IMG/VR virus record: IMGVR_UViG_3300027749_000039
Coordinates: 126,603 to 190,602 of that record
Source: a virus
DNA length: 64,000 nucleotides
Reading direction: 5' to 3' (one strand)
In this document: in pieces, positions 1 through 52,701 of the stretch
How positions within the stretch are numbered: position 1 is the stretch's first letter
Layout of the letters: the number at the start of each line of letters is the position of its first letter
Made by a program: the position numbers and the translations under genes
The notes under the pieces: generated by a model
What the model was told of the DNA's origin: nothing
The model's input: the letters and a program-made list of their open reading frames with translations, nothing else
Database searches by the model: none

Positions 1-2
1 GT

Positions 3-443: not shown

Positions 444-444
444 T

Positions 445-753
445 ATGAAACACAAAGCACATAGAGCGAACCCGCAATATTATTTTGGCGAAGAAACACC
501 TTGTCATAAATTAGCAAATGATCTTATGGCTAATTTAGAATATAGCGGAGTGCTATCTGATGCTTTTTTAAGCTATATTTACACTAGTTTATTTAATATG
601 ATATACTATCACGATCATAATGATTTAGCTAATGGTAAGCAGTTATATAGCGATATAAACGATTTTTTAGATAGGTATTCTCTATTCTCTGATAGTTATA
701 AATCAACTGTTAGACGTCCATTTTTATTAATATTAAATTCAATTGAAAATTGA
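445..753 (+). CDS. Hypothetical protein
   Basis: 102 aa ORF tightly packed after leuS; no motif recognised. Confidence 0.6.
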   Translation: MKHKAHRANPQYYFGEETPCHKLANDLMANLEYSGVLSDAFLSYIYTSLFNMIYYHDHNDLANGKQLYSDINDFLDRYSLFSDSYKSTVRRPFLLILNSIEN

Positions 754-956
754 GATTAGATAGAATGCGATGGTTTGGTCCAGCAAGACCCGAAGATAAA
801 CCAGGTGTAGAAGGTTGGCGACATAGCAGATTATTCAAAGTAGTTAGGCATCAGGGTGCTAAAGCTCTTCGTGCTATAAGCAAAAAATTATGTAAGGAAT
901 CTATATCAGATAATGATATAGATTTTCCTACGTCTAAATATACAAGAAATCACTAA
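750..956 (+). CDS. Hypothetical basic protein
   Basis: Overlapping start/stop with neighbours. Confidence 0.5.
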   Translation: MRLDRMRWFGPARPEDKPGVEGWRHSRLFKVVRHQGAKALRAISKKLCKESISDNDIDFPTSKYTRNH

Positions 957-1201
957 TGGATATAAAATTAATAGGCATTTGGAATGACTCAGCAAGTGAT
1001 AAACCATTTTTTTGCGGATTACCACTAATTGGTCAAATATATGAAGGACATTTAGATCCTGATACAAACAATTCTTGGCTTGTAGTGACTACCAGTAATA
1101 AAATTGGATATCGAATATTTCCAAAAGAATTTCTCATGCCACTTGCTGAATGGCGAGATAAACAAATAGATTCAATTTTACAAGATGACGAAGAAAAATA
1201 A
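956..1201 (+). CDS. Small protein with C-terminal LAEWRDKQIDSIL motif
   Basis: Motif shared with several other ORFs in the window. Confidence 0.7.
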   Translation: MDIKLIGIWNDSASDKPFFCGLPLIGQIYEGHLDPDTNNSWLVVTTSNKIGYRIFPKEFLMPLAEWRDKQIDSILQDDEEK

Positions 1202-1361
1202 AAAACCACGAGATATAGTTAAAGAAACTGAAGAATATTTAGTTTTCCTCAAAAAACGCTTAGATTCGGCTAATTATAAAGCGAATGTTTCAAAAGAAGA
1301 ATATGATGAAACAAAGGCAAAATATGATAAGGTTAAATTAAGATTAAAATTATTAAAATAG
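1185..1361 (+). CDS. Hypothetical 58 aa protein (MTKKNKKPRDIVKETEEY...), below the ORF-track cutoff
   Basis: ATG 1185 to TAG 1361 fills the gap between genes. Confidence 0.55.
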   Translation: MTKKNKKPRDIVKETEEYLVFLKKRLDSANYKANVSKEEYDETKAKYDKVKLRLKLLK

Positions 1362-1395
1362 TAGTATTATATATATCATGATGTTGACGATCTTT
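1360..1395 (+). repeat. 36-bp exact direct repeat, copy 1
   Basis: AGTAGTATTATATATATCATGATGTTGACGATCTTT. Confidence 0.85.
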
Positions 1396-1656
1396 AATAA
1401 AAAAACTATGCTGGACATTACCAATAAAGAGGAAATACACATTTCATTTTTAAAAGAATTATTAGAAATGAATGGTTATAAAAAAGATGAATTAGATTTG
1501 ACAACTGACGATATTGAAATCGAAGGTAGATATATCAATCTAAACGTAGATAATACAGATTTTTCTATATCACTAGATGAGTATATTGAATATAGAAATT
1601 GGTGGATTGCATTAGAAAGAGAAGAAAAAATTAATTCTATATTAAATGAAGACTAA
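1378..1656 (+). CDS. Small protein ending REEKINSILNED (motif family)
   Basis: Variant of the shared C-terminal motif. Confidence 0.6.
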   Translation: MMLTIFNKKTMLDITNKEEIHISFLKELLEMNGYKKDELDLTTDDIEIEGRYINLNVDNTDFSISLDEYIEYRNWWIALEREEKINSILNED

Positions 1657-2191
1657 AATGGACTTACAAAAACAAATAGAAGCATTAAAATTGCAGCGCA
1701 TCCAAGAAATAATGGATGACAATAATGTATCAAAGATACAGAAAATAAAATTGTTTGAAAAAGAGCAATTGTTTAACTGTGCGCCTTATATACAACATGA
1801 ATTTCCTGATTGGGAAATAGAAGCTGTTGAATTGGAAAAATTGGAAGCTGAACGTATTTTAAAAGAAGGTTGCGATAATCCGAATGAAATATGTGCTAAA
1901 CAATTTTATCAATCAAAAATGACTGATACTATATTCGACCCATCTACTTTTTATTATGAGAAATATGAAACAGTTTCTTATTCCGATTCTTTACAAAATT
2001 GTTTAGAAAATGCGTTAGAAGATATTTCTGAGGAAGAATATGATGCAGTTGATAAAGATAATCCAATTATTACGGTTATAACAACAAGACATCCACATAC
2101 AGAGTTGAAAAAACCTTATAATGAAATCATAGATAAGGTTTATGAATTTTGTATAACAAATAAAATATGGGGTTTCAAAAATGATTGGTAA
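1646..2191 (+). CDS. Hypothetical acidic protein
   Basis: 181 aa ORF coupled to the upstream gene. Confidence 0.6.
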   Translation: MKTKMDLQKQIEALKLQRIQEIMDDNNVSKIQKIKLFEKEQLFNCAPYIQHEFPDWEIEAVELEKLEAERILKEGCDNPNEICAKQFYQSKMTDTIFDPSTFYYEKYETVSYSDSLQNCLENALEDISEEEYDAVDKDNPIITVITTRHPHTELKKPYNEIIDKVYEFCITNKIWGFKNDW

Positions 2192-2405
2192 AGCTATTTT
2201 CAAATTTAACAGTGGTCTTGCCGCTATTTTATGCTCTAAATGTAGAGTTATTATCAAAATTGGTAAAAATTTTACCGATGAAGAAACCATGGCATTTAAA
2301 GGTGAAATAGAATTAGAAGCGCAATTTTGTAAAAAATGTAAATTACAAAAATAAATATACAATAAAATTTTGTTTATTGAATACTTTTTCGTAATTTTGT
2401 ATCAT

Positions 2406-2630
2406 ATGAATAAAGAGAAATTAGGGCTGATGTTAGCCGAGTCACTAGAATTAAAATATAAAGCTGATAGAGCCGATGCTTTGGCAAGGTTTGCAGTTTA
2501 TATGAATAATCCAGTAGCAATTGGTGAACATCCACAGCATACGGAAGAAATGGATAAATTGGTTAGCCAATTTACAGATGCTAACGATAAATTATCGGCA
2601 TTAAAAGAAATGGTTGAAGCAATCAAATAA
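2406..2630 (+). CDS. Hypothetical phage protein with NPVAIGEHP motif
   Basis: Likely ATG at 2406, downstream of a TAnnTTTG promoter; the motif resembles a small T4-like phage protein from memory. Confidence 0.6.
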   Translation: MNKEKLGLMLAESLELKYKADRADALARFAVYMNNPVAIGEHPQHTEEMDKLVSQFTDANDKLSALKEMVEAIK

Positions 2631-2767
2631 AAAATATACGAAAAAGTTTTTAAAAACTTTGAAAATTAAAAACTTTTTCGTATTTTTGCTTAAAATAATA
2701 ACAAAAAGAAAAAAAAGCACTTTTAGAATATAATATATATAATTATACGAAAAAAACAAAAATAATT

Positions 2768-2798
2768 TTTGTAAATAAAAAACTTTTTCGTATCTTTG
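2768..2798 (+). promoter_or_regulatory. Bacteroidota sigma70-type promoter (TTTG-N19-TATCTTTG) for the Met/His/Trp/Phe/Ser/Lys tRNA-serS unit
   Basis: Matches the -33 TTTG / -7 TAnnTTTG consensus with a 19 nt spacer. Confidence 0.8.
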
Positions 2799-2831
2799 TT
2801 GTATAATAACAAACAATAAGAAATTAAATAT

Positions 2832-2903
2832 AGCGGGATAGAGCAGTGGTAGCTCGCAAGGCTCATAACCTTGAGGTCATTGGTTCGAATCCAGTTCCTG
2901 CTT
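2832..2903 (+). tRNA. tRNA-Met(CAT), initiator-like body
   Basis: Cloverleaf, anticodon arm CAAGG-CTCATAA-CCTTG, fMet-like GAGCAG..GGTAGCTCG D arm; A1:U72 paired. Confidence 0.9.
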
Positions 2904-2918
2904 CAAAAAAAGACATAT

Positions 2919-2990
2919 TGCGGAGTAGAGCAGTGGTAGCTCGCAAGGCTCATAACCTTGAGGTCGTTGGTTCGAATCCAGCCTCCGTTA
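2919..2990 (+). tRNA. tRNA-fMet(CAT), second copy
   Basis: Same D/anticodon arms as copy 1; U1xU72 mismatch, A73. Confidence 0.9.
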
Positions 2991-3029
2991 CTAAAAAATT
3001 AAAAACAATAACAACTTAAAAATTATTTT

Positions 3030-3119
3030 ATGAAACATTTCAGCTCACATAAACATTCGTTTAAATTCTGGTTTAGCAATCAGGGTTCGGTAGAGTTTTG
3101 TTTCAAAAATGCTTCATAA
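3030..3119 (+). CDS. Attenuator leader peptide L1: MKHFSSHKHSFKFWFSNQGSVEFCFKNAS
   Basis: 3 His, 6 Phe, 1 Trp, 6 Ser; directly upstream of a terminator and His/Trp/Phe/Ser tRNAs. Confidence 0.85.
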   Translation: MKHFSSHKHSFKFWFSNQGSVEFCFKNAS

Positions 3120-3138
3120 GAAGTTATTGAAATGAACT

Positions 3139-3179
3139 AAAAATCTCCGAACTTTATATAAAGTTCGGAGATTTTTTTT
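3139..3179 (+). terminator. Intrinsic terminator of attenuator L1
   Basis: AAAAATCTCCGAACTT-TATATA-AAGTTCGGAGATTTTTTTT. Confidence 0.9.
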
Positions 3180-3183
3180 ATAT

Positions 3184-3257
3184 GGTGATATTGGTGTTAG
3201 CGGTTAGCATGGGACCCTGTGAAGGTCTAGGGACGGATTCGAATTCCGTATATCACC
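3184..3257 (+). tRNA. tRNA-His(GTG)
   Basis: GGACC-CTGTGAA-GGTCT; encoded G-1 opposite C73. Confidence 0.9.
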
Positions 3258-3327
3258 CAAGAAAAGGTAGATTAAACAAAGAAATTATTTAATTGAAACT
3301 AGTATAGATTAAATAATCGTATTGATG

Positions 3328-3379
3328 GTAAAGGTAAGCGGTTAAGCGGAAGATAGTGGTTCGAATCCACTCCTTTTCA
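3328..3379 (+). ncRNA. tRNA-like unit lacking an anticodon arm
   Basis: Acceptor GTAAAGG/CCTTTTC, perfect T arm AGTGG-TTCGAAT-CCACT, only 20 nt between them. Confidence 0.5.
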
Positions 3380-3390
3380 CGAAATAATAT

Positions 3391-3464
3391 GGTGATTGTA
3401 GCTCAATTGGTAGAGCGCAGGTTTGTGGAACCTGAGGTAGCGGGGTCGGAGCTCGTCAATCACC
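3391..3464 (+). tRNA. tRNA-His(GTG), second copy
   Basis: CAGGT-TTGTGGA-ACCTG; G-1:C73; atypical T loop GTCGGAG. Confidence 0.85.
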
Positions 3465-3469
3465 CAATA

Positions 3470-3542
3470 AGGTAATCAAGCTAACTTGGTAACGTGGGAG
3501 ATTCCAACCCTCCAGTCGTCGGATCGTAACCGGCTGTTCGTG
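3470..3542 (+). pseudogene. Degenerate tRNA-Trp(CCA)-like unit
   Basis: Anticodon loop TTCCAAC, intact T arm and G73, but the 5' acceptor strand does not pair. Confidence 0.45.
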
Positions 3543-3553
3543 CAAAATAAAAT

Positions 3554-3626
3554 ACGGGTATGGTGAAAATGGCTATCATTTTTGTCTCCAAAACAAAAGT
3601 TCCGGATTCGAATTCTGGTGCCCGTG
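3554..3626 (+). tRNA. tRNA-Trp(CCA)
   Basis: TTTGT-CTCCAAA-ACAAA; ACGGGTA/TGCCCGT; G73. Confidence 0.9.
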
Positions 3627-3633
3627 CTAAAAT

Positions 3634-3705
3634 GGTGTTGTAACATAGAGGTTTATGTGTTGATCTGAAAAATCAAAAATGCCAGATCGTTACTGGCCGA
3701 CACCA
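3634..3705 (+). tRNA. tRNA-Phe(GAA)
   Basis: TTGAT-CTGAAAA-ATCAA; A73; T loop ATCGTTA. Confidence 0.85.
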
Positions 3706-3768
3706 CAAAAATAAATTAAAAAAGGAAGACGCACCCATTTTATATATAAGTAAATAACAAATATAAAA

Positions 3769-4647
3769 ATGGGTGCGAATTCAAAAGAATGGACAGAAAA
3801 GGAAAAAGAAATACTTTTTAAATATTTTCCGAGTATGGGTAGTAATTATTGTTCAGAATTAACAGGAAGAACAAAAAGAGCTTGTCAAGAAATGGCAAAA
3901 AAATTAAAATTGAAGAGAGATTTAGATAAGTATGAAGATAAAGAAAAATTAGAGGAGTTAGTTAAAGGTTGTAAATCATATACAGAATGTGTAATAAAAT
4001 TGGGGTTATCTCCCAGATGTTCTGGTAATTTTCAGACTATCAAAAAATATATCACAATATATAATATAGATATTTCACATTTTGAAAATGGATTTCAAAT
4101 AGGCAACAAACCTCAAAATAAGAAAGAATTATCAGAAGTTTTAATAGAAAACTCTTTTTTTAGCAGAACTCATCTTAAAGAGAGACTATATAAAGAGGAA
4201 TTAAAAAAGAAAGAATGTGAGATATGTGGAATTGGTGAAGATTGGTTTAATGGAACTAAAATAGTCCATATTTTAGACCATATAAATGGTGAGCCTTATG
4301 ATAATCGTCTTGAAAATTTAAGAATCGTTTGTCCTAATTGTAATTCAACATTAGAAACAAATTGTGTTGGGAATAAAGTTAATAAAATATATGATTCTAA
4401 AAAAGATGAATATAAAAGTGAAAAAACACATAAAAAATGTAATTGTGGTAAAATAATTTTGAAAGAAAGTAAATTTTGTTCAGAATGCAATGCCAAAAGT
4501 AAAAGAAAAATTATTAATAGACCAACATTTGAAGAATTAGTTAAGTTAATAGAAGAAAATGGTAATACTGGAACAGGTAAAATATACGGCGTTAGCGAAG
4601 CTGTCATAAGAAAATGGTTAAAACAATATAAAAATAAATTAGTATAG
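3769..4647 (+). mobile_element. HNH homing endonuclease inside tRNA cluster 1
   Basis: CEICG...LDHINGEPYDNRLENLRIVCPNCNS; C-terminal RPTFEEL..YGVSEAVIRKW HTH; N-terminal Myb-like repeat. Confidence 0.9.
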
Positions 4648-4660
4648 AATATACTAAAAT

Positions 4661-4735
4661 ACAGACTAGTCTATGGTAGTCGGCGGAACTCCAAATCCCG
4701 TGTGACTCGAGTCAGTTCAATTCTGGCAGTCTGTG
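4661..4735 (+). tRNA. tRNA-Trp(CCA), second
   Basis: Loop CTCCAAA, acceptor ACAGACT/AGTCTGT, G73; one mismatch in the anticodon stem. Confidence 0.7.
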
Positions 4736-4745
4736 CTAATAAATT

Positions 4746-4829
4746 GGAAAGTCCTAATTAGGAGTAGTTAGCCGTTTTGAAAACGGTGAAGGTGTAATAG
4801 CCGTGGGGGTTCGAGTCCGTCACTTTCCG
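4746..4829 (+). tRNA. tRNA-Ser(TGA)
   Basis: GCCGT-TTTGAAA-ACGGT, long variable arm, G73. Confidence 0.8.
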
Positions 4830-4840
4830 CAAAATAAAAT

Positions 4841-4918
4841 ACGGGTTTCGTCTAATATTTAAGACACCTCCCGGCAAGGGAGTTAATGTTGTAAGGGTGA
4901 AAATCCTACAACCCGTGC
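4841..4918 (+). pseudogene. tRNA-like unit with unassignable anticodon loop
   Basis: Acceptor ACGGGTT/AACCCGT plus G73 (Trp-like), D stem GTCT/AGAC, loop GGCAAG (6 nt), T loop GTGAAAA. Confidence 0.45.
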
Positions 4919-4933
4919 AAAAAGATTAAAATT

Positions 4934-4969
4934 ATGAAACAATATAAACAGATTAAACAAAAACAATAA
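4934..4969 (+). CDS. Lys-rich mini leader peptide MKQYKQIKQKQ
   Basis: 4 AAA codons in 11, directly upstream of three tRNA-Lys genes; followed by two mutually exclusive hairpins. Confidence 0.6.
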   Translation: MKQYKQIKQKQ

Positions 4970-5001
4970 GTTAGGCTCCTATGGATGCTTAACAAATATA
5001 A

Positions 5002-5076
5002 GCATTCGTAACTCAGAGGCAGAGTATTCGGCTTTTAACCGAAGTGGCGAGATTTCAAAATTCTCCGGATGCACCA
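5002..5076 (+). tRNA. tRNA-Lys(TTT), CCA encoded
   Basis: TTCGG-CTTTTAA-CCGAA. Confidence 0.9.
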
Positions 5077-5079
5077 AAA

Positions 5080-5151
5080 CCGCTTGTAGCAAACTGGTGT
5101 AGGCAAGAGTCTTTTAAACTCTGGGGCTGGGTTCGACTCCCGGCAGGCGGA
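5080..5151 (+). tRNA. tRNA-Lys(TTT), second
   Basis: AGAGT-CTTTTAA-ACTCT. Confidence 0.9.
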
Positions 5152-5156
5152 CAATA

Positions 5157-5228
5157 GATTTTATATGTCAATGGTTAGACTAGCAGACTCTTAATCTGCG
5201 GATCTGAGTTCGAGTCTCAGTGAAATCA
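5157..5228 (+). tRNA. tRNA-Lys(CTT)
   Basis: GCAGA-CTCTTAA-TCTGC. Confidence 0.9.
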
Positions 5229-5244
5229 CAAAAAATTTTTAAAA

Positions 5245-6513
5245 ATGTTAGAAATAAAATTATTTAGGCAAAATAAGGACCTAATTATAGAAGGACTTAA
5301 AAAGAAAAATTTTAAGCAACTTAATTTAGTTGATGAAATTATTAAATTGGATGAAGATTTAAGAAAATTAAAACAGGAAACTGAAAATTTAACTTCTGTT
5401 ATTAATAAAAATAATAGCGAAATTGCAAGATATATTAAAACAGATGCAGTTAAGGTAGAAAATATTAAAACTCATAATATTATTTTAAATGAAAAAATTG
5501 AGGAATTAACTAATATACTAAATCAAACTGAAAACGAGTTATTGGATAATTTAATTCAATTACCAAATCTTCCAAATCAAATTGTAGAAATAGACAATGG
5601 TAATGAAGCAACTAATGGTAATGTTATTATAAGAGAAAACTTAACTCAGTGTACACAAGGTAAACCTCATTGGGAAGTAATTAAAGATTTAAATATAGTT
5701 AGTTTTGAACTAGGAACTAAAATTACTGGTGCTGGGTTTCCTGTTTATATCGGAAAAGGCGCAAGATTACAAAGAGCTTTAATTCAATATTTTTTAGATT
5801 ATAATACTAATGCTGGTTATACAGAATATAATATACCATTAATGGTTAATTATGATTCTGCATATGGTACAGGACAACTCCCTGATAAAGAAGGTCAAAT
5901 GTATTATGCTGAAAAGGATAATTTATACTTAATTCCAACAGCAGAAGTTCCTTTAACTAATATCTTTAGAGATGAAATAGTTAATTTGCCCATAAAAATG
6001 ACAGGACATAGTGCTTGTTTTAGAAGAGAAGCTGGCGCACATGGTAAAGAAGTAAGAGGGTTAAATCGAGTTCATCAATTTGAAAAAGTTGAAATAGTTC
6101 AATTAGTTCAACCTGATAAAAGTTATGAAGTATTGGAAGAAATGGTTTTACATGTTGAGAACTTGATAAAAAGCTTAGAATTACCATATAGAATACTTAA
6201 ATTAAGTGGCACAGATATGAGTTTTGCATCTGCTTTAACTTATGACTTTGAAGTATATAGTGCGGCTCAAGACAGATGGTTAGAAGTAAGTTCTGTGAGT
6301 AATTTTGAAACTTTCCAATCTAATCGTATGAAAATTAGATTTAAAGAAGATAAAAAGAACAAATTAGTTCATACTTTAAATGGAAGTTCTTTAGCATTAC
6401 CAAGAATAATGGCTTGCTTATTAGAAAATAATCAAACACATGAAGGTATAAAAATACCAGAAGTATTAATACCGTATTACGGTGACAAATTTTTAACAAA
6501 TGGAAAATTATAA
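5245..6513 (+). CDS. serS: Seryl-tRNA synthetase
   Basis: N-terminal coiled coil, LIPTAEVPL, CFRREAG..RGLNRVHQFEKVE, HTLNGSSLALPR. Confidence 0.97.
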   Translation: MLEIKLFRQNKDLIIEGLKKKNFKQLNLVDEIIKLDEDLRKLKQETENLTSVINKNNSEIARYIKTDAVKVENIKTHNIILNEKIEELTNILNQTENELLDNLIQLPNLPNQIVEIDNGNEATNGNVIIRENLTQCTQGKPHWEVIKDLNIVSFELGTKITGAGFPVYIGKGARLQRALIQYFLDYNTNAGYTEYNIPLMVNYDSAYGTGQLPDKEGQMYYAEKDNLYLIPTAEVPLTNIFRDEIVNLPIKMTGHSACFRREAGAHGKEVRGLNRVHQFEKVEIVQLVQPDKSYEVLEEMVLHVENLIKSLELPYRILKLSGTDMSFASALTYDFEVYSAAQDRWLEVSSVSNFETFQSNRMKIRFKEDKKNKLVHTLNGSSLALPRIMACLLENNQTHEGIKIPEVLIPYYGDKFLTNGKL

Positions 6514-6745
6514 AAAATTAATAGAGAAATATAAAGTTGAAATAGTAGATTATATTATTTCTTCAAAAGACCAATTAGAAGAATACCGTAAAAAGTATTT
6601 AGGCGCAAATGGAATTATAAAACAAGTTTATAATCAATTAAAACAAGTTCCTGCTGAAAAAAGAAAACAAGCAGGAGAATTGTTAAGAGGATTAAAAGAT
6701 TGTGCTGAAAATAAATATGAAAATTCTTTTGTTAATTCAAAATAA
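6500..6745 (+). CDS. Stand-alone PheRS alpha-subunit N-terminal coiled-coil domain
   Basis: LEEYRKKYLGANGIIKQVYNQLKQVPAEKRKQAGELL matches the PheS N-terminal pattern (..RvkYLGkkG..l..lp.eeR..aG..lN); no catalytic domain follows. Confidence 0.7.
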   Translation: MENYKKLIEKYKVEIVDYIISSKDQLEEYRKKYLGANGIIKQVYNQLKQVPAEKRKQAGELLRGLKDCAENKYENSFVNSK

Positions 6746-6758
6746 TTTCGTATCTTTG
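6728..6758 (+). promoter_or_regulatory. Bacteroidota-type promoter for the Ser/Arg tRNA cluster
   Basis: TTTG-N19-TATCTTTG. Confidence 0.8.
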
Positions 6759-6807
6759 TAAAAGAAAATAAACAAAAAAGCATTTTAACAATATAATATA
6801 TACAATT

Positions 6808-6864
6808 ATGAAAACAATATCATCGTCTAGTCGCAGTAGTTTAACTTTGGAAATCCAGAGATGA
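6808..6864 (+). CDS. Attenuator leader peptide L2: MKTISSSSRSSLTLEIQR
   Basis: TCA TCG TCT AGT CGC AGT AGT run upstream of Ser(GCT), Arg(ACG), a Ser-like unit and Ser(GGA). Confidence 0.85.
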   Translation: MKTISSSSRSSLTLEIQR

Positions 6865-6883
6865 TAGTGTATGTATATACTTG

Positions 6884-6915
6884 AAGCCTTGGATTGTAAA
6901 ATTCAAGGCTTTTTT
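6884..6915 (+). terminator. Intrinsic terminator of attenuator L2
   Basis: AAGCCTTGGATT-GTAA-AATTCAAGGCTT-TTTT. Confidence 0.85.
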
Positions 6916-6921
6916 AATTTT

Positions 6922-7012
6922 GGTGAGTTACTCAAGTGGTCAAAGAGGCTTGTTTGCTAAACAAGTAGGACGGTAAAACGTTGCGTGGGTTCGAACCCCA
7001 CACTCACCGCCA
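6922..7012 (+). tRNA. tRNA-Ser(GCT), CCA encoded
   Basis: CTTGT-TTGCTAA-ACAAG, long variable arm, G73. Confidence 0.92.
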
Positions 7013-7062
7013 AAATATACAGATAATTGCGGGTTCGAGACCCGTTCTGGATACAAAAATAT

Positions 7063-7136: not shown

Positions 7137-7142
7137 CTAATA

Positions 7143-7230
7143 GGAAAGTTGGCAGAGCGGTTTAATGCGCTGGCACTGAAGCCGGTGACTGGCAAAAGCC
7201 GGTCCGTGAGTTCGAATCTCATACTTTCTT
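7143..7230 (+). pseudogene. Ser-type tRNA with a 6-nt anticodon loop (ACTGAA) and U73
   Basis: Ser-like body with long variable arm; the loop is one nt short of canonical CTTGAAA. Confidence 0.6.
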
Positions 7231-7234
7231 ATAT

Positions 7235-15981: not shown

Positions 15982-16012
15982 TTTGCTATTTCAAAACTTT
16001 ATCGTATATTTG
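15982..16012 (+). promoter_or_regulatory. Bacteroidota-type promoter for the Tyr/Glu/Ala/Gly cluster
   Basis: TTTG-N19-TATATTTG. Confidence 0.8.
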
Positions 16013-16059
16013 CAATACAATAATCAACAAACAAACAAAACATTTTAAATAAAAATTTT

Positions 16060-16158
16060 ATGAAAACTACAATAATCACAACACAAGTAATCGGCGCATA
16101 TGAAGCGGGTTATGCCTATGAGGGAACATCTCATGGAGTTGGTAAGTTATGTAGTTAA
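16060..16158 (+). CDS. Attenuator leader peptide L3: MKTTIITTQVIGAYEAGYAYEGTSHGVGKLCS
   Basis: GAYEAGYAYEG block is composed only of Gly/Ala/Tyr/Glu, the four amino acids of the downstream tRNAs. Confidence 0.88.
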   Translation: MKTTIITTQVIGAYEAGYAYEGTSHGVGKLCS

Positions 16159-16180
16159 TCATAAAAAGATATAATTACTT

Positions 16181-16215
16181 AAAGCATCCAACTCAAAAAG
16201 TTGGATGCTTTTTTT
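16181..16215 (+). terminator. Intrinsic terminator of attenuator L3
   Basis: AAAGCATCCAACT-CAAAA-AGTTGGATGCTTT-TTTT. Confidence 0.9.
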
Positions 16216-16225
16216 ATGTTAAATT

Positions 16226-16309
16226 GGGAGTGTTGGGCAATTGGCTGGCCCGCCTGACTGTAAATCAGGTTCTTCGGACATGGGGGTTCAAATCCCTCCA
16301 CTCTCACCA
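16226..16309 (+). tRNA. tRNA-Tyr(GTA), CCA encoded
   Basis: CCTGA-CTGTAAA-TCAGG, long variable arm, A73. Confidence 0.92.
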
Positions 16310-16313
16310 AATT

Positions 16314-16393
16314 CGTTCAGTTGTCTAGCGGCAATGACTGGGAGCTGTAACCTCCCCTCTTCGGATTCGTAGGTTCGAGTCCTACCTGAACGA
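16314..16393 (+). tRNA. tRNA-Tyr(GTA), second; C1:G72
   Basis: GGGAG-CTGTAAC-CTCCC. Confidence 0.85.
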
Positions 16394-16493
16394 CAAAAAT
16401 ATACTGGTATTATTAACAGCGGGATAGATTACCAAATAGGAGGTGAAAGTCCTTATGACCGTACAGAGAAAGGCTTTGTGTATATTTTTATCT

Positions 16494-16565
16494 GCTACCA
16501 TAGATTAATCGGTAAATCGTGGCTCTTTCACAGCCAAGTAGGGGGATCGTAACCCCTTGGTAGTA
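16494..16565 (+). tRNA. tRNA-Glu(TTC)
   Basis: TGGCT-CTTTCAC-AGCCA. Confidence 0.88.
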
Positions 16566-16572
16566 CAAACAA

Positions 16573-16644
16573 GGCCCAGTAGATTACTGGCTAAATCGTT
16601 GCACTTTCACTGCAAAGAAGACGGATCGAACCCGTTCTGGGCTG
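16573..16644 (+). tRNA. tRNA-Glu(TTC), second
   Basis: TTGCA-CTTTCAC-TGCAA. Confidence 0.88.
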
Positions 16645-16678
16645 CAAGGGTGTTAGTTATTCCGGAATAACTAACTTT

Positions 16679-16746
16679 AGTATAGTAGCTCAATTGGTAG
16701 AGCGGTGGTGATTCACAGGCAGTAGGTTCAAAACCTATCTATACAC
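16679..16746 (+). ncRNA. tRNA-like unit with shrunken anticodon arm
   Basis: Canonical D arm (GCTC-AATTGGTA-GAGC) and T arm; the anticodon arm is only 12 nt (GTGGTGATTCAC). Confidence 0.55.
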
Positions 16747-16757
16747 AAAATTAACAA

Positions 16758-16831
16758 GTCAGGTTTGACAAGCGGCTTAAGTCACCTTCCTCTCAAGAAG
16801 GACATCATGGGTTCGAATCCCATACTTGATT
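16758..16831 (+). tRNA. tRNA-Glu(CTC)
   Basis: CCTTC-CTCTCAA-GAAGG. Confidence 0.85.
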
Positions 16832-16890
16832 CACAGAAAAGGTTATCTGGGTGGATTTTTCAACAGAAAATGAAACTCCGAGCCTTAGAC

Positions 16891-16964
16891 GGGGCGGCAT
16901 GTACCAAGGCTGGCGAAGAACACTTGCAATGTTCCTGTGGTGAGTTCAATTCTCATCCGCTCCA
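16891..16964 (+). tRNA. tRNA-Ala(TGC)
   Basis: GAACA-CTTGCAA-TGTTC; G3:U70. Confidence 0.88.
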
Positions 16965-17013
16965 CGAAGTGAAGGAAAACACGATAAACCCGTCTGCTAG
17001 GACGTAAAATAAC

Positions 17014-17085
17014 GCAGAGATAGTATAACGGTTATTACACTGGCTTGCCAAGCCGGATATGGGAGTTCGATTCTCCTTCTCTGCT
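17014..17085 (+). tRNA. tRNA-Gly(GCC)
   Basis: CTGGC-TTGCCAA-GCCGG; U73. Confidence 0.92.
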
Positions 17086-17143
17086 CTAAAAATGGTTCGA
17101 CCGCTAAATCGAGTTAGTGAAAATCTACATTCGAACCATATGA

Positions 17144-17216
17144 GGGGGATTAGTTGTAATTGGCAAAACGTGGGCTTTGCAAGTCTGAGTTGCCGGATCG
17201 TTGCCGGCATCCTCCA
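17144..17216 (+). tRNA. tRNA-Ala(TGC), second
   Basis: Loop TTTGCAA; G3:U70; T loop ATCGTTG. Confidence 0.85.
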
Positions 17217-17272
17217 CAACAAAATAGTGATAGAGCGGCTTTGAACTTTTATATATAAAAATAAAAGTTCAA

Positions 17273-17908
17273 TTGCATCACACAATTTATAAAATAACCA
17301 ATTTAATAAATGGCAAAATTTATATTGGAAAACACTCAACAAATGATATTAAAGATAACTACTACGGTAGTGGGAAATTAATTAAAAGTGCTATAGAAAA
17401 ATATGGTATTATTAATTTCACAAAAGAAATTTTGTTTAATTTTCAATCAGAGGAAGAAGCTTATGCCAAGGAAAAGGAAATAGTAAATGAAAGTTTCATA
17501 AAAAGAAAAGATGTTTATAACCTTATAATAGGGGGTGATACATTTGAAGCTATTAATTCCAATTTAGAATTAAGAAAAGCTAAAAATAAGAAAGCTGCAT
17601 TAATTATGAATTCTGTAAATTGGAATAATCCAGAATTTAGAAAAAGGCAAACTGATAAAATGATATTACAAAATAAAAAATTGCATAAAGAAGGAATTCT
17701 TAAAAGTGTTGATTGGACCGGAAAGAAACATAAGGATGAAAGCAAAGAGAAAATGAGGGAAAAGGCAAAATTGAGAATAGGTGATAAAAACTCTTCATTT
17801 GGAACTTGTTGGATATATAATGAAAATGAAAGTAAGAAAATAAAAAAAGAAGATTTAGAAAACTACTTATCTATTGGATGGATAAAAGGTAGAAAAATTA
17901 AATTTTAA
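17273..17908 (+). mobile_element. GIY-YIG homing endonuclease (Seg-like, NUMOD3) in tRNA cluster 3; TTG start
   Basis: TIYKITNLINGKIYIGKH..YYGSGKLIKSAIEKYG; TGKKHKDESKEKM. Confidence 0.9.
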
Positions 17909-17911
17909 TAA

Positions 17912-17994
17912 GCGAGTATAGTATAACGGAGGCGAAAGCCGTATTATGCTGGTCTTCCAAACCGGATATGAGAGTTCGATTCTCTCTACTCGCT
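17912..17994 (+). tRNA. tRNA-Gly(TCC) with an extra hairpin inserted in the D loop
   Basis: CTGGT-CTTCCAA-ACCGG; D loop contains GGC-GAAA-GCC. Confidence 0.82.
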
Positions 17995-18001
17995 CTAAAA
18001 T

Positions 18002-18075
18002 GGGTTGTATATTTTAATGATAGAATGCTGCGGGATTATAAAGCGGCGGTGTGAGACCAATTCTCATTATAACCC
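18002..18075 (+). pseudogene. tRNA-like unit with His-type G-1:C73 acceptor and an 11-nt anticodon loop
   Basis: GGTTGTA/TATAACC, GCTGC-GGGATTATAAA-GCGGC, T loop ACCAATT. Confidence 0.45.
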
Positions 18076-18117
18076 CAAATGAAGGAAATTCTTCATTATA
18101 AAAATAAAAATTAAAGT

Positions 18118-18417
18118 ATGTCGGATCGAAGATATTATGTCTTTATGAAAAGCGGTAGAAAGTTCTGCGTAGAAGAATATGGTAAGACATATACTGATTG
18201 GGGTAATTATAACCCAGCTACGAAGAAGATTGAAAAGGTTGCATCTAAATCAAGTGAGATTATTGATGAACATAACACTAAAATAACGAAAGAAAACGGA
18301 TATAAGAATATCTGTATGTTAGAAACTGGTACATCACCAATGGCTTATATTGAAGCTATTGATACAAGTGGTGTAGAAAGATTTGAAGGTGTAGATTTTG
18401 TTACATACGAAGATTAA
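18118..18417 (+). CDS. Hypothetical protein
   Basis: 99 aa ORF within tRNA cluster 3. Confidence 0.65.
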   Translation: MSDRRYYVFMKSGRKFCVEEYGKTYTDWGNYNPATKKIEKVASKSSEIIDEHNTKITKENGYKNICMLETGTSPMAYIEAIDTSGVERFEGVDFVTYED

Positions 18418-18663
18418 TATGGAATTAAATATTCTAATAGAAAAGATTAAATCTAAAATTGATTTAACAGAAGAGGAAGAAATATATTATTTAGTTAATG
18501 GCTTAAAAATGAGCGAAAAAGAAGCTAAAAGAATTGTATACCGACCTAAACCTGTAATAGGAAAATTAATAGATTAATTAGAAATATATTTGTAAAAAGA
18601 TATATTTCTACTACATGCCGGTTCAAGGAACGCACACCCTGGCGAGGGTGCCTACCGGCTCCA

Positions 18664-18736
18664 GGGGGATTAGCTCATTTGGTAGAGCATTTGTATGGCA
18701 TACAAAAGGCGACCGGTTCGATTCCGGTATCCTCCA
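18664..18736 (+). tRNA. tRNA-Ala(GGC)
   Basis: TTTGT-ATGGCAT-ACAAA; G3:U70. Confidence 0.9.
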
Positions 18737-18858
18737 CTAAAAAATATAAAACAAATAAATAGAATGAAAACTAAAAACATGGGCGGAAAGACGCTGGACG
18801 CATTAATGTCGTAGAAGAGTATAAAACTTTCTGCGACGGTAAACAAATAAACTTCAAA

Positions 18859-19638
18859 ATGGACGATAACGTCCGCTCCTATGACGAAACAACTCTGTTT
18901 TGTCCTGCAGGAATGTCCCAATACAAATCCTTATTTAAGGATATTAACCACAAGGGAACAATAAGTAATATACAATCTTGCCTTCGTTTAAACGATATGG
19001 AAGAAATAGGTGATGGGAGCCACCTATTGTATTTTAACATGATTGGATTATTCTCGTTTAGAGAAATGACTATACAAGAAGCTATTGACTTTTGGATGGA
19101 ATTTCTCTATAAAATCAATTGTATTCCTGATTACATTACTATTCATCCTGATAAACCTGAATGGCGAGATTTCTATTCTAATTATAATGTTGAAATACGT
19201 TATGATGAAGGGTGTATATGGAGTGACGGAGGTATCGGTGGCTACTGCACTGAATTTTACAAGGATGATATTGAAATAGGTAATATAGTTAATCCGTTAG
19301 GTACTTGTATTGACGCAGGGTGGGGTTTGGAACGTATAGAAATGGTTTTATATAATGAGAGAAAAACAAAAGAAGAAACCTTAATTAATACAATTATGAA
19401 AATGATTGAAAGCGGATTTACACCTACTTACAATAAACAAGGTTCTCTTTTGCGAAAACTTTTAAGAATTTGTTATTTAGAAAAAATAGAAGTTCCGCAT
19501 CAATTTTACCAAGATGAAATTTTGAGACAACAAAAAATTATAGAAAAATATAATAGAATGAAAGAGAAACCTAAGTTTAAAAATATGTCTAAGGAGTTTT
19601 GGTTTAATACTCTTGGTATTGATATAGATTTAATGTGA
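18859..19638 (+). CDS. alaS: Minimal alanyl-tRNA synthetase (catalytic domain only); true start may lie up to ~28 codons upstream
   Basis: DETTLFCPAGMSQYK, QSCLRLND.EEIGDGSHL.YFNMIGLFSF, IEIGNIV, IDAGWGLERI; no editing or C-Ala domain. Confidence 0.85.
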   Translation: MDDNVRSYDETTLFCPAGMSQYKSLFKDINHKGTISNIQSCLRLNDMEEIGDGSHLLYFNMIGLFSFREMTIQEAIDFWMEFLYKINCIPDYITIHPDKPEWRDFYSNYNVEIRYDEGCIWSDGGIGGYCTEFYKDDIEIGNIVNPLGTCIDAGWGLERIEMVLYNERKTKEETLINTIMKMIESGFTPTYNKQGSLLRKLLRICYLEKIEVPHQFYQDEILRQQKIIEKYNRMKEKPKFKNMSKEFWFNTLGIDIDLM

Positions 19639-19720
19639 TTTAACTGACTTAGATTTATTATTAGATAGTTCAAACTTACTTCTTTTCTCTTATATAAAAA
19701 AGAAAAGAAAAGAATAAATT

Positions 19721-20449
19721 ATGAAAGAAAAAGAGTTATACAAAACCATTGATATAATTGATGATTCTCGTTTGGAAATAATAATTGAAGTTAAAAATGG
19801 TATAGAAGGTATGGTGATACATCCTGATTTGGCTATACATAAGTGTATAGAAATGATATCTAAATATGCCATAATCAAAGTTTTGTCCGGAAAAAATGGA
19901 ATAAAACTTATAGATGGTGAGGAAAATAGATATCCTGATATACCAATAATTGTGGATTTATTTAATAATAAAATTGCTATTGATGTTAAGTCAAGCAATT
20001 CCACTAGTGGTAAAGGATTATCAGGTAATGATGCTTTTTCGTTTATTAATTTCGAAACTTCTAGATATAATATATTTGGAGAAGAATTTATTATAGGTGT
20101 TGTTTATGAAGTTATAAATGGTAGATTATATCCACAAGATGTGATTTTTGATAAATTACATTTTTTAGTGGCTAAAAGGAAAAAAGATGGATTTATGTCT
20201 CATGGTGGTGATAAATTTAATTCTAGGATGTTATCTATTAATAGGTATAATAATGGTGATTATGATTATTTAAGTAGAGAAGAATTATTAGAAGGATGTA
20301 AAAAAACTTACAAATTCTTATTAGAAAATCCTAAATTTCGTAATTTAGTTAATGATGTTAAGATTAAAAAACCAAAGAAAAATAGTAATATATATGATCC
20401 AGTTGGTGATTATACGAAATTGCTATTAGAAAAATTAGAAATGTTATAA
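19721..20449 (+). CDS. PD-(D/E)XK nuclease, restriction-endonuclease-like
   Basis: YPD....IAIDVKS motif. Confidence 0.5.
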   Translation: MKEKELYKTIDIIDDSRLEIIIEVKNGIEGMVIHPDLAIHKCIEMISKYAIIKVLSGKNGIKLIDGEENRYPDIPIIVDLFNNKIAIDVKSSNSTSGKGLSGNDAFSFINFETSRYNIFGEEFIIGVVYEVINGRLYPQDVIFDKLHFLVAKRKKDGFMSHGGDKFNSRMLSINRYNNGDYDYLSREELLEGCKKTYKFLLENPKFRNLVNDVKIKKPKKNSNIYDPVGDYTKLLLEKLEML

Positions 20450-20517
20450 TTTAAATTAGAAACGGAATAGTTATCCGTTTCTTTTTTTTTTATATATAAT
20501 AAAAAATATATATTTTA

Positions 20518-20958
20518 ATGAAATTTGTGAAAACATTTGAAACCTTTAATTATACTCCAAATAATTATGAATATGATTATACCGAAGCTAATGAAGATGA
20601 TATAGAAATTGCGGAACGTGAAGGATATTTAAAATCAATGAGTAATGATTTATTTAAAAGATTAGTAAATGTAGTTTCTTCTAATTCTGGTGATACTGAA
20701 ACTAATAATTATAAATTGGAACATGACGGGTATTATTCATATTTTAATTATAATTTTAGAAAAGATGATATAACTGGTCAAGGTAAAATAAATGATTGGT
20801 ATTTTTCAATCTATCTTATAATGGATGATTCATTTATTTTATCTTATAAAGACGAAGAAACCGATGAAATTAAATGTTTTCACTGCTCTAATTATTTAAG
20901 CTTAATTAAGTGTATGAAGGATAAACAAGATGAAACAAGAGGTATTTATATTAAATAA
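20518..20958 (+). CDS. Protein starting MKFVKTFETF (capsid-targeting-like)
   Basis: Follows a terminator and a TATATAAT motif. Confidence 0.6.
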   Translation: MKFVKTFETFNYTPNNYEYDYTEANEDDIEIAEREGYLKSMSNDLFKRLVNVVSSNSGDTETNNYKLEHDGYYSYFNYNFRKDDITGQGKINDWYFSIYLIMDDSFILSYKDEETDEIKCFHCSNYLSLIKCMKDKQDETRGIYIK

Positions 20959-20987
20959 TTAATATATAATAAAAAATATAATATATT

Positions 20988-21371
20988 ATGAAAAATATAA
21001 AAAACTTTGGTGATTTTGTAAATGAATCTTATTCTATTTTAGAAGGAAAAGACCATAAATTTGCGGATGAAGCATTTAGTAGAAAAATTACTGATAAATT
21101 TTTATCTGATTCTTATGATGTAAGTGATGAATTTTATAATAAAATTATAACATTAGCACATGCTTATTTTAAGAAAAATAGCGATGGAGATGTTGATAAA
21201 TTTATATCTTCGGAAAAAGATAAATTAGATAAATTAATAGCAGGTGAAAAAAAGAAAGGTGAAAAACAAAAAAATAAAGAATTAAAATCATCTAAAAAGA
21301 AGGATTATGAAAATGAAGAAATAACTGATGATGATATGAAAGATTTAGAAGATGACGAAGAAGAAGATTAA
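20988..21371 (+). CDS. Protein starting MKNIKNFGDFVNES (capsid-targeting-like), charged tail
   Basis: Follows a TAATATATA motif. Confidence 0.6.
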   Translation: MKNIKNFGDFVNESYSILEGKDHKFADEAFSRKITDKFLSDSYDVSDEFYNKIITLAHAYFKKNSDGDVDKFISSEKDKLDKLIAGEKKKGEKQKNKELKSSKKKDYENEEITDDDMKDLEDDEEED

Positions 21372-21592
21372 TAAAAAGCGGATAAAATTATCCGCTTTTT
21401 TTATTAAACTTTTTATTTTTTATTCATAAATAACTTATGACTAAAACAATAAGATTAGATTACGATGATAATCCAAATGATGTAGCTGACAAATTTGCTT
21501 ATATATTAGAAAAATTTGGCATCTCGGTTGAATATATTGATAATGATGGTTATCAAGATTATGTAGAATTAGAAATAAAAAAAATATAAAAT

Positions 21593-22814
21593 ATGGGCTG
21601 GAAATCAACAATAGCGGTATCAAGACAACACGCACTTCACTTAATTTATGAACGAGCGGTTAGAGCTTCTAATCAAGAATTAGAAGAATTATTAGAATCA
21701 GTAGGGTATGGTGACGATACTAGTTTATCTTTATACGGTCATAATTTTACCGTTTTGGATTCAAATGATGAAGTAGAAGAGTATAATAAATCGGATTACG
21801 AAGAAGAAGATGAAGAAGATTGTTAAGTTAATTAATTTACACCGTAGGTTAATTAACATTTATAAGTATGATAAATCAGTTGCCATACTTAATACCATAA
21901 TTAGATTAGAAGATAAATTATCTTTACCTTTATTAATAATTTTAGTTTTATTAAATGGAACCGAAAATCGTTATTGGTTAATAGATATGCAGAAAAACAT
22001 AAGTGTGAGCAACCTGAAAGATTCTAAAAAGAATATAAAATTATTCACTTATGACATAGTGGCTGACCCAGGATGAAAGTTAAAGATTTAATAGCTATGC
22101 TTCAAAAACTTAATCCAGAAGCGGAAATTATACTTGAGCCAACTGATGGTATGAAACTAAAACAACAATTTAATTATTATGATGAGGGTTGGAAAGAAGA
22201 AGATATAACAGAAAATGGTGATATAATCTAAACTTTAAAAAAAATATTACTATATAAATTATGAATTTATATGAAGCACAAAAGTTTTTTTGGAATGAAT
22301 TGAAAGATGTTATTAAAAATAATAATATGGAATCTATATATGTAAATGTGTATATAGGAACAGCAATACAAGATTGTTATGATTATGTATGGGAAAAAAG
22401 AACAGAGACAATAAGATTGTCCGACGGACCATTTTTAGACGGCACTTTTGATGGTGCAAAAGTTTTTATTGATGCGAATAAAAAATATAGCGATCAAAAA
22501 TTATATGATAAAGAAGGTAATATAATTCATGATTTCAGTATAAATTTTGGTCATTTATGTTTAATATGAGATGGCAAGAAATAGAAAATGATTTTGATAG
22601 GTTTGATTTAGATAGATCTTTCATTAGCAAAAATCTTTTATCAAGAGAAAAAGTAAGAATAGTCAAATATCCACATTTGGATATTCCAATAGTATATTAC
22701 ATAAAGATGTATAAAATATTTTCTTTTAAAAGTGATTTTAAACCAAAATATCCTATATTAAGTAGATTTTTTACACTACTTGGTATTAGAGATATAAATT
22801 ATAATGAAAAATGA
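21593..22814 (+). CDS. Run of small hypothetical proteins (21593-21826, 21810-22076, 22261-22569, 22557-22814)
   Basis: Track ORFs with coupled stops and starts. Confidence 0.5.
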
Positions 22815-22858
22815 ATATAGAATTTTTTGAGAAAAAATTTAATATAAAATTATAGTTA

Positions 22859-22932
22859 GCAAGATTCGCCTAGTTGGTATGGCATCACACTTCCAATGTG
22901 AAATAGGGCCGGTTCGAGACCGGCATCTTGCT
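22859..22932 (+). tRNA. tRNA-Gly(TCC), isolated copy
   Basis: TCACA-CTTCCAA-TGTGA; U73. Confidence 0.9.
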
Positions 22933-23006
22933 CAACACATATAATACGAAAATCTATTTGTTAATTCAAATAGATTTTCGTATTTTTGCTTATTAAAAGA
23001 AATTCT

Positions 23007-27693: not shown

Positions 27694-27805
27694 TTAACTT
27701 TTAGTTTTATATTTCATATGAAAAAAATAATATGCTTTCTCTACTAACTTTTTTTGTTTTTGTTAGATTATTTTCGTAATTTTGTATAAATTGAAAGATA
27801 AAAAT

Positions 27806-28744
27806 ATGAAAGATTCATTAGGTGATAGGATAAAAGAATACGAATCACAAACATGTGGAACTCGTTTAATGGGCAGACTGCCCGTGATATGCCGGCTCGA
27901 CGGAAAGAATTTTAGCCGCTTTACTAAAGGTTTAAAGCGTCCATATGATGAACGTTTATCTAATCTTATGGTTGAAACTACTAAGTATTTAGTTAAAGAA
28001 ACTAATGCTAATTGTGGCTATCATCAATCAGATGAAATTACTTTAGTATGGTATTCTGACTCATATGAATCTAAAATTTATTTTGATGGACGCTTATTCA
28101 AAATGATTTCTGATTTAGCCGCCATGGCTTCTGTATTTTTCAATAGAGAATTACCAAGCTATTTACCAGAAAAAGCACACTTGATGCCTCGTTTTGATTG
28201 TAGAGTATTTAGCATACCTACAATTCACGAAGCTGCTAACTGCTTTCTGTGGCGCGAATTAGATGCTACTAAGAACTCAATTAGTATGGCTGCACAACAC
28301 TATTATTCTCACAAAGAATTAGAAGGTAAAAATGGTTCGGAAAAACAAGAAATGCTTTTCCAAAAAGGCGTAAATTGGAATGACTACCCAGCCTCATTTA
28401 AAAGAGGAACCTATATTCAAAGGAAAAGAGTTCTAACAAAGTTTTCTACTGAAGAATTAGAGAATTTACCTGTTAAACACCAAGCTAGGCAAAATCCTGA
28501 CTTGATGATTGAGAGATGGGTAATAGATAGGATAGATTTACCGCCTTTGATGACTATACAGAATAGAGAAGAAGTAATTCTTTTTGGAGCTGAGCCAAAT
28601 GACGTGCGTGTAGTAGGTTATACTATTGAAGATATGTTAGAAGCTTTCTATGCAAAAGGTGATAAAGTTGATATGACAGAATTTAAATTCTGGGTAGATT
28701 CAGTATTACCTTTGCTAAAAACAAAAGAAAAAGAATTAATATGA
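27806..28744 (+). CDS. thg1: tRNA(His) guanylyltransferase Thg1 / Thg1-like protein
   Basis: CRLDGKNFSRFT, YHQSDEITL, FDCRVF, WRELDATKNS, GVNWNDYP..KRGT. Confidence 0.95.
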   Translation: MKDSLGDRIKEYESQTCGTRLMGRLPVICRLDGKNFSRFTKGLKRPYDERLSNLMVETTKYLVKETNANCGYHQSDEITLVWYSDSYESKIYFDGRLFKMISDLAAMASVFFNRELPSYLPEKAHLMPRFDCRVFSIPTIHEAANCFLWRELDATKNSISMAAQHYYSHKELEGKNGSEKQEMLFQKGVNWNDYPASFKRGTYIQRKRVLTKFSTEELENLPVKHQARQNPDLMIERWVIDRIDLPPLMTIQNREEVILFGAEPNDVRVVGYTIEDMLEAFYAKGDKVDMTEFKFWVDSVLPLLKTKEKELI

Positions 28745-34431: not shown

Positions 34432-34500
34432 ATGAAAAACATCAATCTAAATATGAATTTGCTTAATCTAATGGAAACATTGGACAGGATTCTTATATAG
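34432..34500 (+). CDS. Attenuator leader peptide L5: MKNINLNMNLLNLMETLDRILI
   Basis: Leu codons CTA x2, TTG x2, CTT x2; Met x3; Asn x5. Confidence 0.88.
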   Translation: MKNINLNMNLLNLMETLDRILI

Positions 34501-44911: not shown

Positions 44912-44984
44912 CGAGTATGAAGTGTAACCAGGTTGCACACGAATTTTGGGAATTCGTAGAGACGTTCGAATCGTACATGCTCGA
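44912..44984 (+). tRNA. tRNA-Pro(TGG)
   Basis: CGAAT-TTTGGGA-ATTCG; C1:G72, A73; weak T stem. Confidence 0.8.
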
Positions 44985-45037
44985 CAAAAAATCACTGCTT
45001 CGATTAAACTTTCTCCGACAATTTTAATATATATCTT

Positions 45038-52684: not shown

Positions 52685-52701
52685 AATTAGCGGCTTTTAT
52701 G

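Follow-up and report, generated by a model that had tools for sequence, protein, structure and literature searches.

Multivalent leader attenuators are known from enterobacterial operons, namely ilvGMEDA with Ile, Leu and Val codons and thr with Thr and Ile codons; trpL, hisL, leuL and pheL are further leaders of this kind. In Escherichia coli the pheM leader controls pheST, which encodes phenylalanyl-tRNA synthetase. T-box riboswitches of the Firmicutes also control aminoacyl-tRNA synthetase (aaRS) genes and bind uncharged tRNA directly via a specifier codon without any translation. To our knowledge, all described leader-peptide attenuators regulate amino acid biosynthesis or aaRS genes. The element treated here, L3, lies at the head of a tRNA gene array in IMG/VR virus record IMGVR_UViG_3300027749_000039, a single contig of 190,602 bp with 27.9 % G+C, of which the final 64 kb (64,000 nucleotides, positions 126,603 to 190,602; the window in the following) were analysed. 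As judged from the sequence, L3 is probably a ribosome-mediated (leader-peptide) transcription attenuator which targets tRNA genes together with a gene for a protein resembling alanyl-tRNA synthetase (AlaRS).

L3 resembles the ilvGMEDA and thr leaders in its short leader, its codon block for several amino acids, the competition of a terminator with a ribosome-dependent antiterminator and the predicted read-through upon slow decoding. However, it would govern tRNA genes and an aaRS-like gene instead of biosynthetic enzymes, with sensed molecule and product belonging to the same class, and its block lists the members of a mixed tRNA array and not the end products of one pathway. Furthermore, in contrast to the enterobacterial leaders, it is found in a phage with Bacteroidota-type promoters and has no Shine-Dalgarno sequence. 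The attenuation of genes for the translation apparatus is shared with pheM-pheST, and both alaS-like and glnS genes stand behind leaders in the window; yet pheM serves a synthetase for one amino acid, whereas ten tRNA genes for four amino acids follow L3. A conditional choice between terminator and antiterminator which reports tRNA status is also typical for T-box elements, but the signal of L3 is an in-frame codon run within an open reading frame (ORF) from ATG to stop, and no T-box family match was obtained in Rfam, even at E values up to 1-10. The genes which come first behind L3 are tRNA genes, followed only later by the AlaRS-like gene, and this arrangement departs from the described leader-peptide attenuators. 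A full-text literature search, which most subscription journals lay outside of, turned up no account of tRNA genes controlled by a leader peptide. A cassette of the published 642-kb phage LR756502.1 has the same parts as L3: a promoter, a mini-ORF of the MK/MN type spelling the amino acids of the array, an antiterminator, a terminator and a tRNA array.

The L3 ORF (Table 1) translates into MKTTIITTQVIGAYEAGYAYEGTSHGVGKLCS followed by a stop codon. Its start, ATG AAA AC, is common to the seven leaders of the window, and an A-rich stretch of 47 nucleotides separates it from the promoter-like box. The regulatory block had been predicted as GGC GCA TAT GAA GCG GGT TAT GCC TAT GAG GGA and is present in exactly this form. 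Gly, Ala, Tyr and Glu codons make up 21.6 % of the codons in the long ORFs of the genome, so that a run of 11 is expected with a probability of about 5e-8 per position. Elsewhere in the 190,602-bp genome, whichever of the six frames is read, runs of this kind reach 6 codons at most, and only the L3 block exceeds this length. The match is also specific for the reading frame: 13 of 31 codons are cognate in frame 0, the longest run being 11, compared with 4 and 3 cognate codons in the two alternative frames, where no run exceeds 1. Each codon of the block has a cognate anticodon downstream (Tyr x2, Glu x3, Gly x2, Ala x3), as had been claimed. Among these, the expected tRNA-Gly(TCC) was recovered by Rfam at 17912-17994. 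Two tRNA-Ala(TGC) genes had been counted, of which the one starting at 17144 is a regular ARAGORN hit, whereas the other (16890-16965) is non-canonical and scores below the Rfam threshold.

Downstream of the block two alternative structures are predicted. The intrinsic terminator ends 7 nucleotides upstream of tRNA-Tyr, so close that there is no space for a promoter between them. The pairing of AGTTGG (16137-16142) with CCAACT (16188-16193), which the original prediction had pointed out, is real and grows to 7 bp within a larger fold. In this antiterminator an outer helix joins 16136-16142 with 16188-16194, a middle helix joins 16147-16149 with 16180-16182, and an inner hairpin (16151-16178) encloses the stop codon at 16156-16158. 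When 16126-16197 is folded, leaving out the 3' arm of the terminator, the predicted energy is -17.3 kcal/mol (z -4.46), a value matched by 0 of 200 shuffles and nearly equal to that of the terminator (-17.5 kcal/mol). The fold occupies 9 of the 13 nucleotides of the terminator 5' arm, so both structures are mutually exclusive. In the full-length minimum-energy fold of 16080-16220 the terminator forms together with a hairpin of 16114-16123 with 16129-16139, which would act as region 1:2 and has comparable counterparts in three of the related loci described below (L002, L027 and L066). This geometry fits the classical model, in which a ribosome stalled in the block would allow the antiterminator to form and a ribosome at the stop codon would sit inside it and melt it.

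The proposed mechanism is as follows. Transcription would start from a Bacteroidota-type promoter near 16001-16012, and the 32 codons of the leader would be translated by a ribosome while RNA polymerase advances. If charged Gly, Ala, Tyr or Glu tRNA is scarce, the ribosome would stall within 16093-16125 and leave 16136-16149 free, which, with the nested hairpin 16151-16178, could then pair to 16180-16194. The terminator 5' arm would thereby be sequestered, with read-through into the genes for Tyr (x2), Glu (x3), Gly (x2) and Ala (x3) tRNAs and alaS. Upon fast decoding a ribosome at the TAA (16156-16158) would melt the antiterminator, and the hairpin 16181-16211 and its U-run would then halt transcription 7 nucleotides before the first tRNA. 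The outcome would be a negative feedback, the supply of tRNAs being set by the slowness with which their own codons are decoded; the L3 tRNAs are probably made only while ribosomes read the codons of the block slowly.

The same layout, a mini-ORF with an MK start, a terminator and an array, occurs in six further cassettes of the window (Table 1), and the true pairing of leaders and arrays scores better than any other of 40,320 permutations. To collect relatives, the AlaRS-like protein was used as anchor, which gave 69 IMG/VR phage loci and one locus of LR756502.1 (L001). Every relative locus with an array has the same cassette at its head, and nine cassettes with the layout of L3 were found in other phage contigs, LR756502.1 included. 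For eight non-redundant relatives the true pairing of leader and array is among the top 2 of 40,320 permutations.

The content of leader and array changes in concert among these relatives. Homologues of L3 with a common N-terminus and a Y/E/A/G core exist in L002, L027, L066/68 and L001; they have ATA codons in the block and a tRNA-Ile(TAT) in the array, and L3 of the window lacks both. L002 uses only GGA/GGG and GCA/GCG codons and possesses only Gly-UCC and Ala-UGC tRNAs. In L003, with a G+C content of 52 %, the leader is rich in A, P, G, Y, D and M and stands in front of Pro (x3), Gly (x4), Tyr (x2), Asp (x2), Ala (x3) and Met tRNAs; compared with L3 this leader has gained Pro, Asp and Met and lost Glu, exactly matching its array. 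An F/D/E/A leader precedes Asp, Ala, Phe and Glu tRNAs in L004/5/39, an I/L/G/T/E leader Gly, Thr, Glu, Ile and Leu tRNAs in L060, and an A/P leader Ala and Pro tRNAs in L058. With the parts named above, i.e. promoter-like box, codon-matched ORF, overlapping antiterminator and a terminator abutting the first tRNA, and with the recurrence of this design, the attenuator interpretation is supported.

That the leaders sense amino acid or charging status in order to control a synthetase gene in the style of pheM-pheST, namely alaS in the L3 unit and genes of glnS and serS type elsewhere, the tRNAs being co-transcribed passengers, is improbable in view of these data. aaRS genes do lie distally in several units (the alaS-like gene at 18859, GlnRS at 46280 immediately downstream of the Gln tRNAs and Asn/AspRS at 36306), and leaders of this type read charged and not total tRNA. 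However, four amino acids are represented in the L3 block, yet the AlaRS-like gene is the sole one of aaRS type in the unit. In addition, the block follows the tRNA content in the relatives, the ATA codons for instance going along with tRNA-Ile(TAT) and no IleRS being seen nearby, and no aaRS gene follows immediately after the Ser/Arg, Asp/Pro and Asn/Ile/Leu units.

The antiterminator was also analysed across the class by a cross-pair test, in which the duplex energy of the 3' segment of each of 14 leaders with every terminator 5' arm was calculated. The own arm ranks first for 10 of the 14 leaders, with L3 at rank 1 of 14 (-11.6 against a mean of -7.1), and none of 100,000 permutations attained the diagonal sum. 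The terminator arm is paired to the final part of the leader ORF in the pre-terminator folds of all 15 canonical cassettes. In the L3 family the terminator stem of the window differs from those of the homologues, and the 3' region of the leader shows a matching change. Such complementarity is predicted by the antiterminator model but is not needed if the translated, codon-matched mini-ORF acts in another way, through access of Rho, processing of the precursor by RNase or stabilisation of the transcript, the hairpin then being an element for processing or stability. Precursors of tRNAs undergo extensive processing, the hairpin is located 7-14 nucleotides from the RNase P site, and the stop of transcription at the hairpin is itself a prediction; against this, 15 of the 16 hairpins examined are textbook intrinsic terminators with U-runs, and this second explanation appears still slightly less probable than synthetase control. 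It is very improbable that L3 is an ordinary small phage gene with a constitutive leaky terminator and a coincidental codon match, or a translation-independent RNA sensor of the T-box type, for although small ORFs and terminators are frequent in AT-rich phage DNA, the L3 run is unique in the genome and frame-specific, chance is rejected by the permutation tests in the window and in the relatives, and neither a T-box nor another known leader family was found at the Rfam threshold. A match to Phe_leader at 52610-52703 was below threshold (Rfam, E 0.46) and was disregarded.

Several points weigh against the attenuator interpretation. We infer leader translation, the promoter, the coupling of transcription and translation as well as direction and size of the response; coupling in the host is assumed, and the promoter role of the box and the translation start of the leader are deduced from motifs only. 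A Shine-Dalgarno sequence is absent at the L3 leader, as is expected for Bacteroidota-type hosts. The bare duplex between the L3 antiterminator strand and the strict 13-nucleotide arm (-7.7 kcal/mol, P 0.26) is no better than in shuffles, so it is the nested fold and the cross-pair test that support the antiterminator. Just 4 nucleotides are common to the predicted 1:2 hairpin and the 5' strand of the antiterminator, and a strict four-region switch is thus not established; moreover, a ribosome stalled on the last codon of the block would cover part of 16136-16142. Finally, since leaders sense charged tRNA, amino acid starvation would also cause read-through, and extra tRNA would be no help in this situation.

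The diversity of synonymous codons in the block had been taken as a sign of sensing at the level of isoacceptors. This was evaluated by synonymous resampling with the codon usage of the genome. The leaders of the window touch 35 of 36 array anticodons compared with 30.5 expected (P 0.0066), and 191 codons of 15 leaders are readable by their own array compared with 180.2 ± 3.5 expected (P 0.0015), an excess which comes mostly from the Leu leader (6 of 6, 2.0 expected) and L028. For L3 alone, 7 of 7 anticodons are covered under wobble rules (P 0.18) and 6 of 7 if only Watson-Crick cognates are counted (P 0.049); the readability test is powerless here because the L3 array reads all Gly and Ala synonyms. 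The idea therefore holds in part, as a fit of codons and anticodons across the class, but is not demonstrated for L3 alone. Codon-level tuning appears as a partly supported property of the cassette class, weak for L3 by itself.

The genes for phage tRNAs are usually viewed as fixed aids for codon usage or as spares against host tRNA cleavage, and the control of their expression is largely unknown. If the attenuator interpretation is true, tRNA supply in large phages would be subject to a direct feedback driven by demand and based on the oldest RNA switch logic known, and the leader sequence alone would predict which tRNAs form a common regulatory unit. It would then become testable when and why phages depend on tRNAs of their own. 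Leader codons would also help to annotate phage tRNAs of odd, non-canonical structure, and the cassettes would be compact, portable sensors of single-tRNA availability for synthetic biology. A far more tentative and rather doubtful extension is that the phage holds a bank of codon-resolved decoding sensors (seven in the window), each of which induces just the tRNA set and synthetase for slowly read codons, down to isoacceptors, as a matched replacement for host tRNAs lost during infection to shut-off or to anticodon-nuclease defence. Such sensors would be a self-tuning counter-measure rather than a constitutive tRNA supply.

Table 1 Components of the L3 unit and leaders of the six further cassettes; positions refer to the window
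Feature	Position	Strand	Basis or content
Promoter-like box ATCGTATATTTG	16001-16012	+	Contains Bacteroidota-type -7 motif TAnnTTTG
L3 leader ORF, 32 codons and TAA	16060-16158	+	Homologous leaders in L002, L027, L066 and L001
Regulatory block, 11 consecutive Gly/Ala/Tyr/Glu codons (codons 12-22)	16093-16125	+	
Predicted hairpin, last four block codons (16114-16123) with 16129-16139	16114-16139	+	Minimum-energy fold
Antiterminator	16136-16194	+	Outer and middle helix and inner hairpin, all from predicted fold
Intrinsic terminator, 13-bp stem, 5-nt loop, T-run	16181-16218	+	-17.5 kcal/mol
tRNA-Tyr(GTA) x2	16226-16394 (starts 16226, 16314)	+	ARAGORN
tRNA-Glu(TTC) x2	Starts 16494, 16573	+	ARAGORN
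tRNA-like element, truncated anticodon arm	16679-16746	+	4 nt replace 9 model positions
tRNA-Glu(CTC)	Start 16758, Glu group ends 16832	+	ARAGORN
Non-canonical tRNA-Ala(UGC)-like element	16890-16965	+	ARAGORN at lowered threshold only
tRNA-Gly(GCC)	17014-17086	+	ARAGORN
tRNA-Ala(TGC)	17144-17217	+	ARAGORN
GIY-YIG homing endonuclease within array	17273-17908	+	phrog_314, E 1e-39; blastn matches to phage homing endonucleases
tRNA-Gly(UCC), 14-nt D-loop insert, anticodon loop CUUCCAA	17912-17994	+	Rfam tRNA 52.5 bits, missed by ARAGORN
Weak tRNA-like element, abnormal anticodon arm	18003-18075	+	Rfam 29.1 bits
tRNA-Ala(GGC)	18664-18737	+	ARAGORN
AlaRS-like gene, 259 aa, class II catalytic-core fragment only	18859-19638	+	Pfam tRNA-synt_2c, E 1e-17
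Terminator after ORF 19721-20449	20458-20490	+	
Leader 3030	3030		H, F, S, W; array His x2, Trp, Phe, Ser
Leader 6808	6808		SSSSRSS; array Ser, Arg, Ser, Ser
Leader 31207	31207		23 consecutive N/I/R/T/L/V/C codons; array Leu, Ile, Arg, Val, Asn, Thr, Cys
Leader 34432	34432		CTA, TTG, CTT, ATG; array Leu-TAG, Leu-CAA, Leu-AAG, Met
Leader 44484	44484		D, P; array Asp x3, Pro
Leader 45917	45917		QQQQQ; array Gln x3, then GlnRS

The inclusion of the alaS-like gene in the predicted L3 unit, also part of the original prediction, is supported, as neither a promoter motif nor a strong terminator was found within 16218-20458; a search for TAnnTTTG-type motifs on the + strand gave no further promoter motif in 16012-22977. 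The unit probably ends at the terminator at 20458-20490. Across the 69 IMG/VR phage contigs the AlaRS-like protein shows 47-70 % identity, and many of these contigs have no tRNAs near the gene. The ORF 19721-20449, for which no Pfam or PHROG match was found, could be a partner of this protein. Searches with ARAGORN at low threshold with introns gave mostly false positives, and hits were accepted only where Rfam or conservation concurred. The Ala(UGC)-like element is below the Rfam tRNA cut-off and has an aberrant D arm, yet it possesses a G3:U70 acceptor stem and a UGC loop. A similar element adjoins the AlaRS-like gene in L002 (2575-2646), which suggests that the element and the mini-AlaRS form a dedicated pair. 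L002 also contains, at 1-7038, an inverted self-duplication with the same six tRNAs on both strands in mirror order, probably an assembly artefact. Between the weak tRNA-like element at 18003-18075 and tRNA-Ala(GGC) two small ORFs are present. Another ORF of 16 codons with an MKT start (18767-18817) is located between tRNA-Ala(GGC) and the AlaRS-like gene and is followed by an imperfect hairpin without a U-run.

Some details of the other cassettes may be added. A tRNA-Pro(UGG) at 44912-44985, missed by ARAGORN with default settings and found by Rfam with 34.5 bits, accounts for the three Pro codons of the Asp leader. The Gln leader (45917-45967, MKNLTLQQQQQMIKLD) represents the last 16 codons, in frame, of a 309-aa ORF (45038-45967) which resembles an inserted homing endonuclease and separates the Asp/Pro array from the Gln unit; translation of this leader may begin at its internal ATG, or it may be made as the tail of a fusion. 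TAG is the stop codon of the Leu leader (34432-34500) and could be read through if amber codons are suppressed late in infection. The sole tRNA of the contig outside the window has a CUA anticodon of the amber suppressor type (54412-54485 of the genome, C1). A Lys mini-ORF at 4934-4969 was considered as an eighth attenuator and was not counted, its hairpin having no U-run. This Lys/Gln mini-ORF, MKQYKQIKQKQ, stands upstream of three tRNA-Lys genes (4934-5001) and may be degenerate or belong to a different type of control.

Of the tRNA genes detected by ARAGORN in the contig, 45 of 46 are inside the window, clustered and all on the + strand. Genes for SerRS, the AlaRS-like protein, TyrRS, Asn/AspRS and GlnRS are interspersed with these clusters, and homing endonucleases are scattered among them as well. 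For the serS protein no relatives were found in a search of viral_contigs. A motif with the Bacteroidota-type -7 box TAnnTTTG is over-represented (30 matches, 9.2 expected), with matches upstream of the Met, Ser, L3, LIR, Leu and Asp units. Two tRNA-Met(CAT) genes (2787-2991) follow directly behind a promoter box without leader or terminator, and the His/Phe/Trp leader is found downstream of them. At 7142-7231 ARAGORN reports a type-II tRNA with a four-base anticodon (ctga), which may be a Ser(UGA/CGA) tRNA with an 8-nucleotide loop or a miscall. The same translation-related region of the window encodes a Thg1-like tRNA-His guanylyltransferase at 27782-28744 (phrog_4717, E 8e-81).

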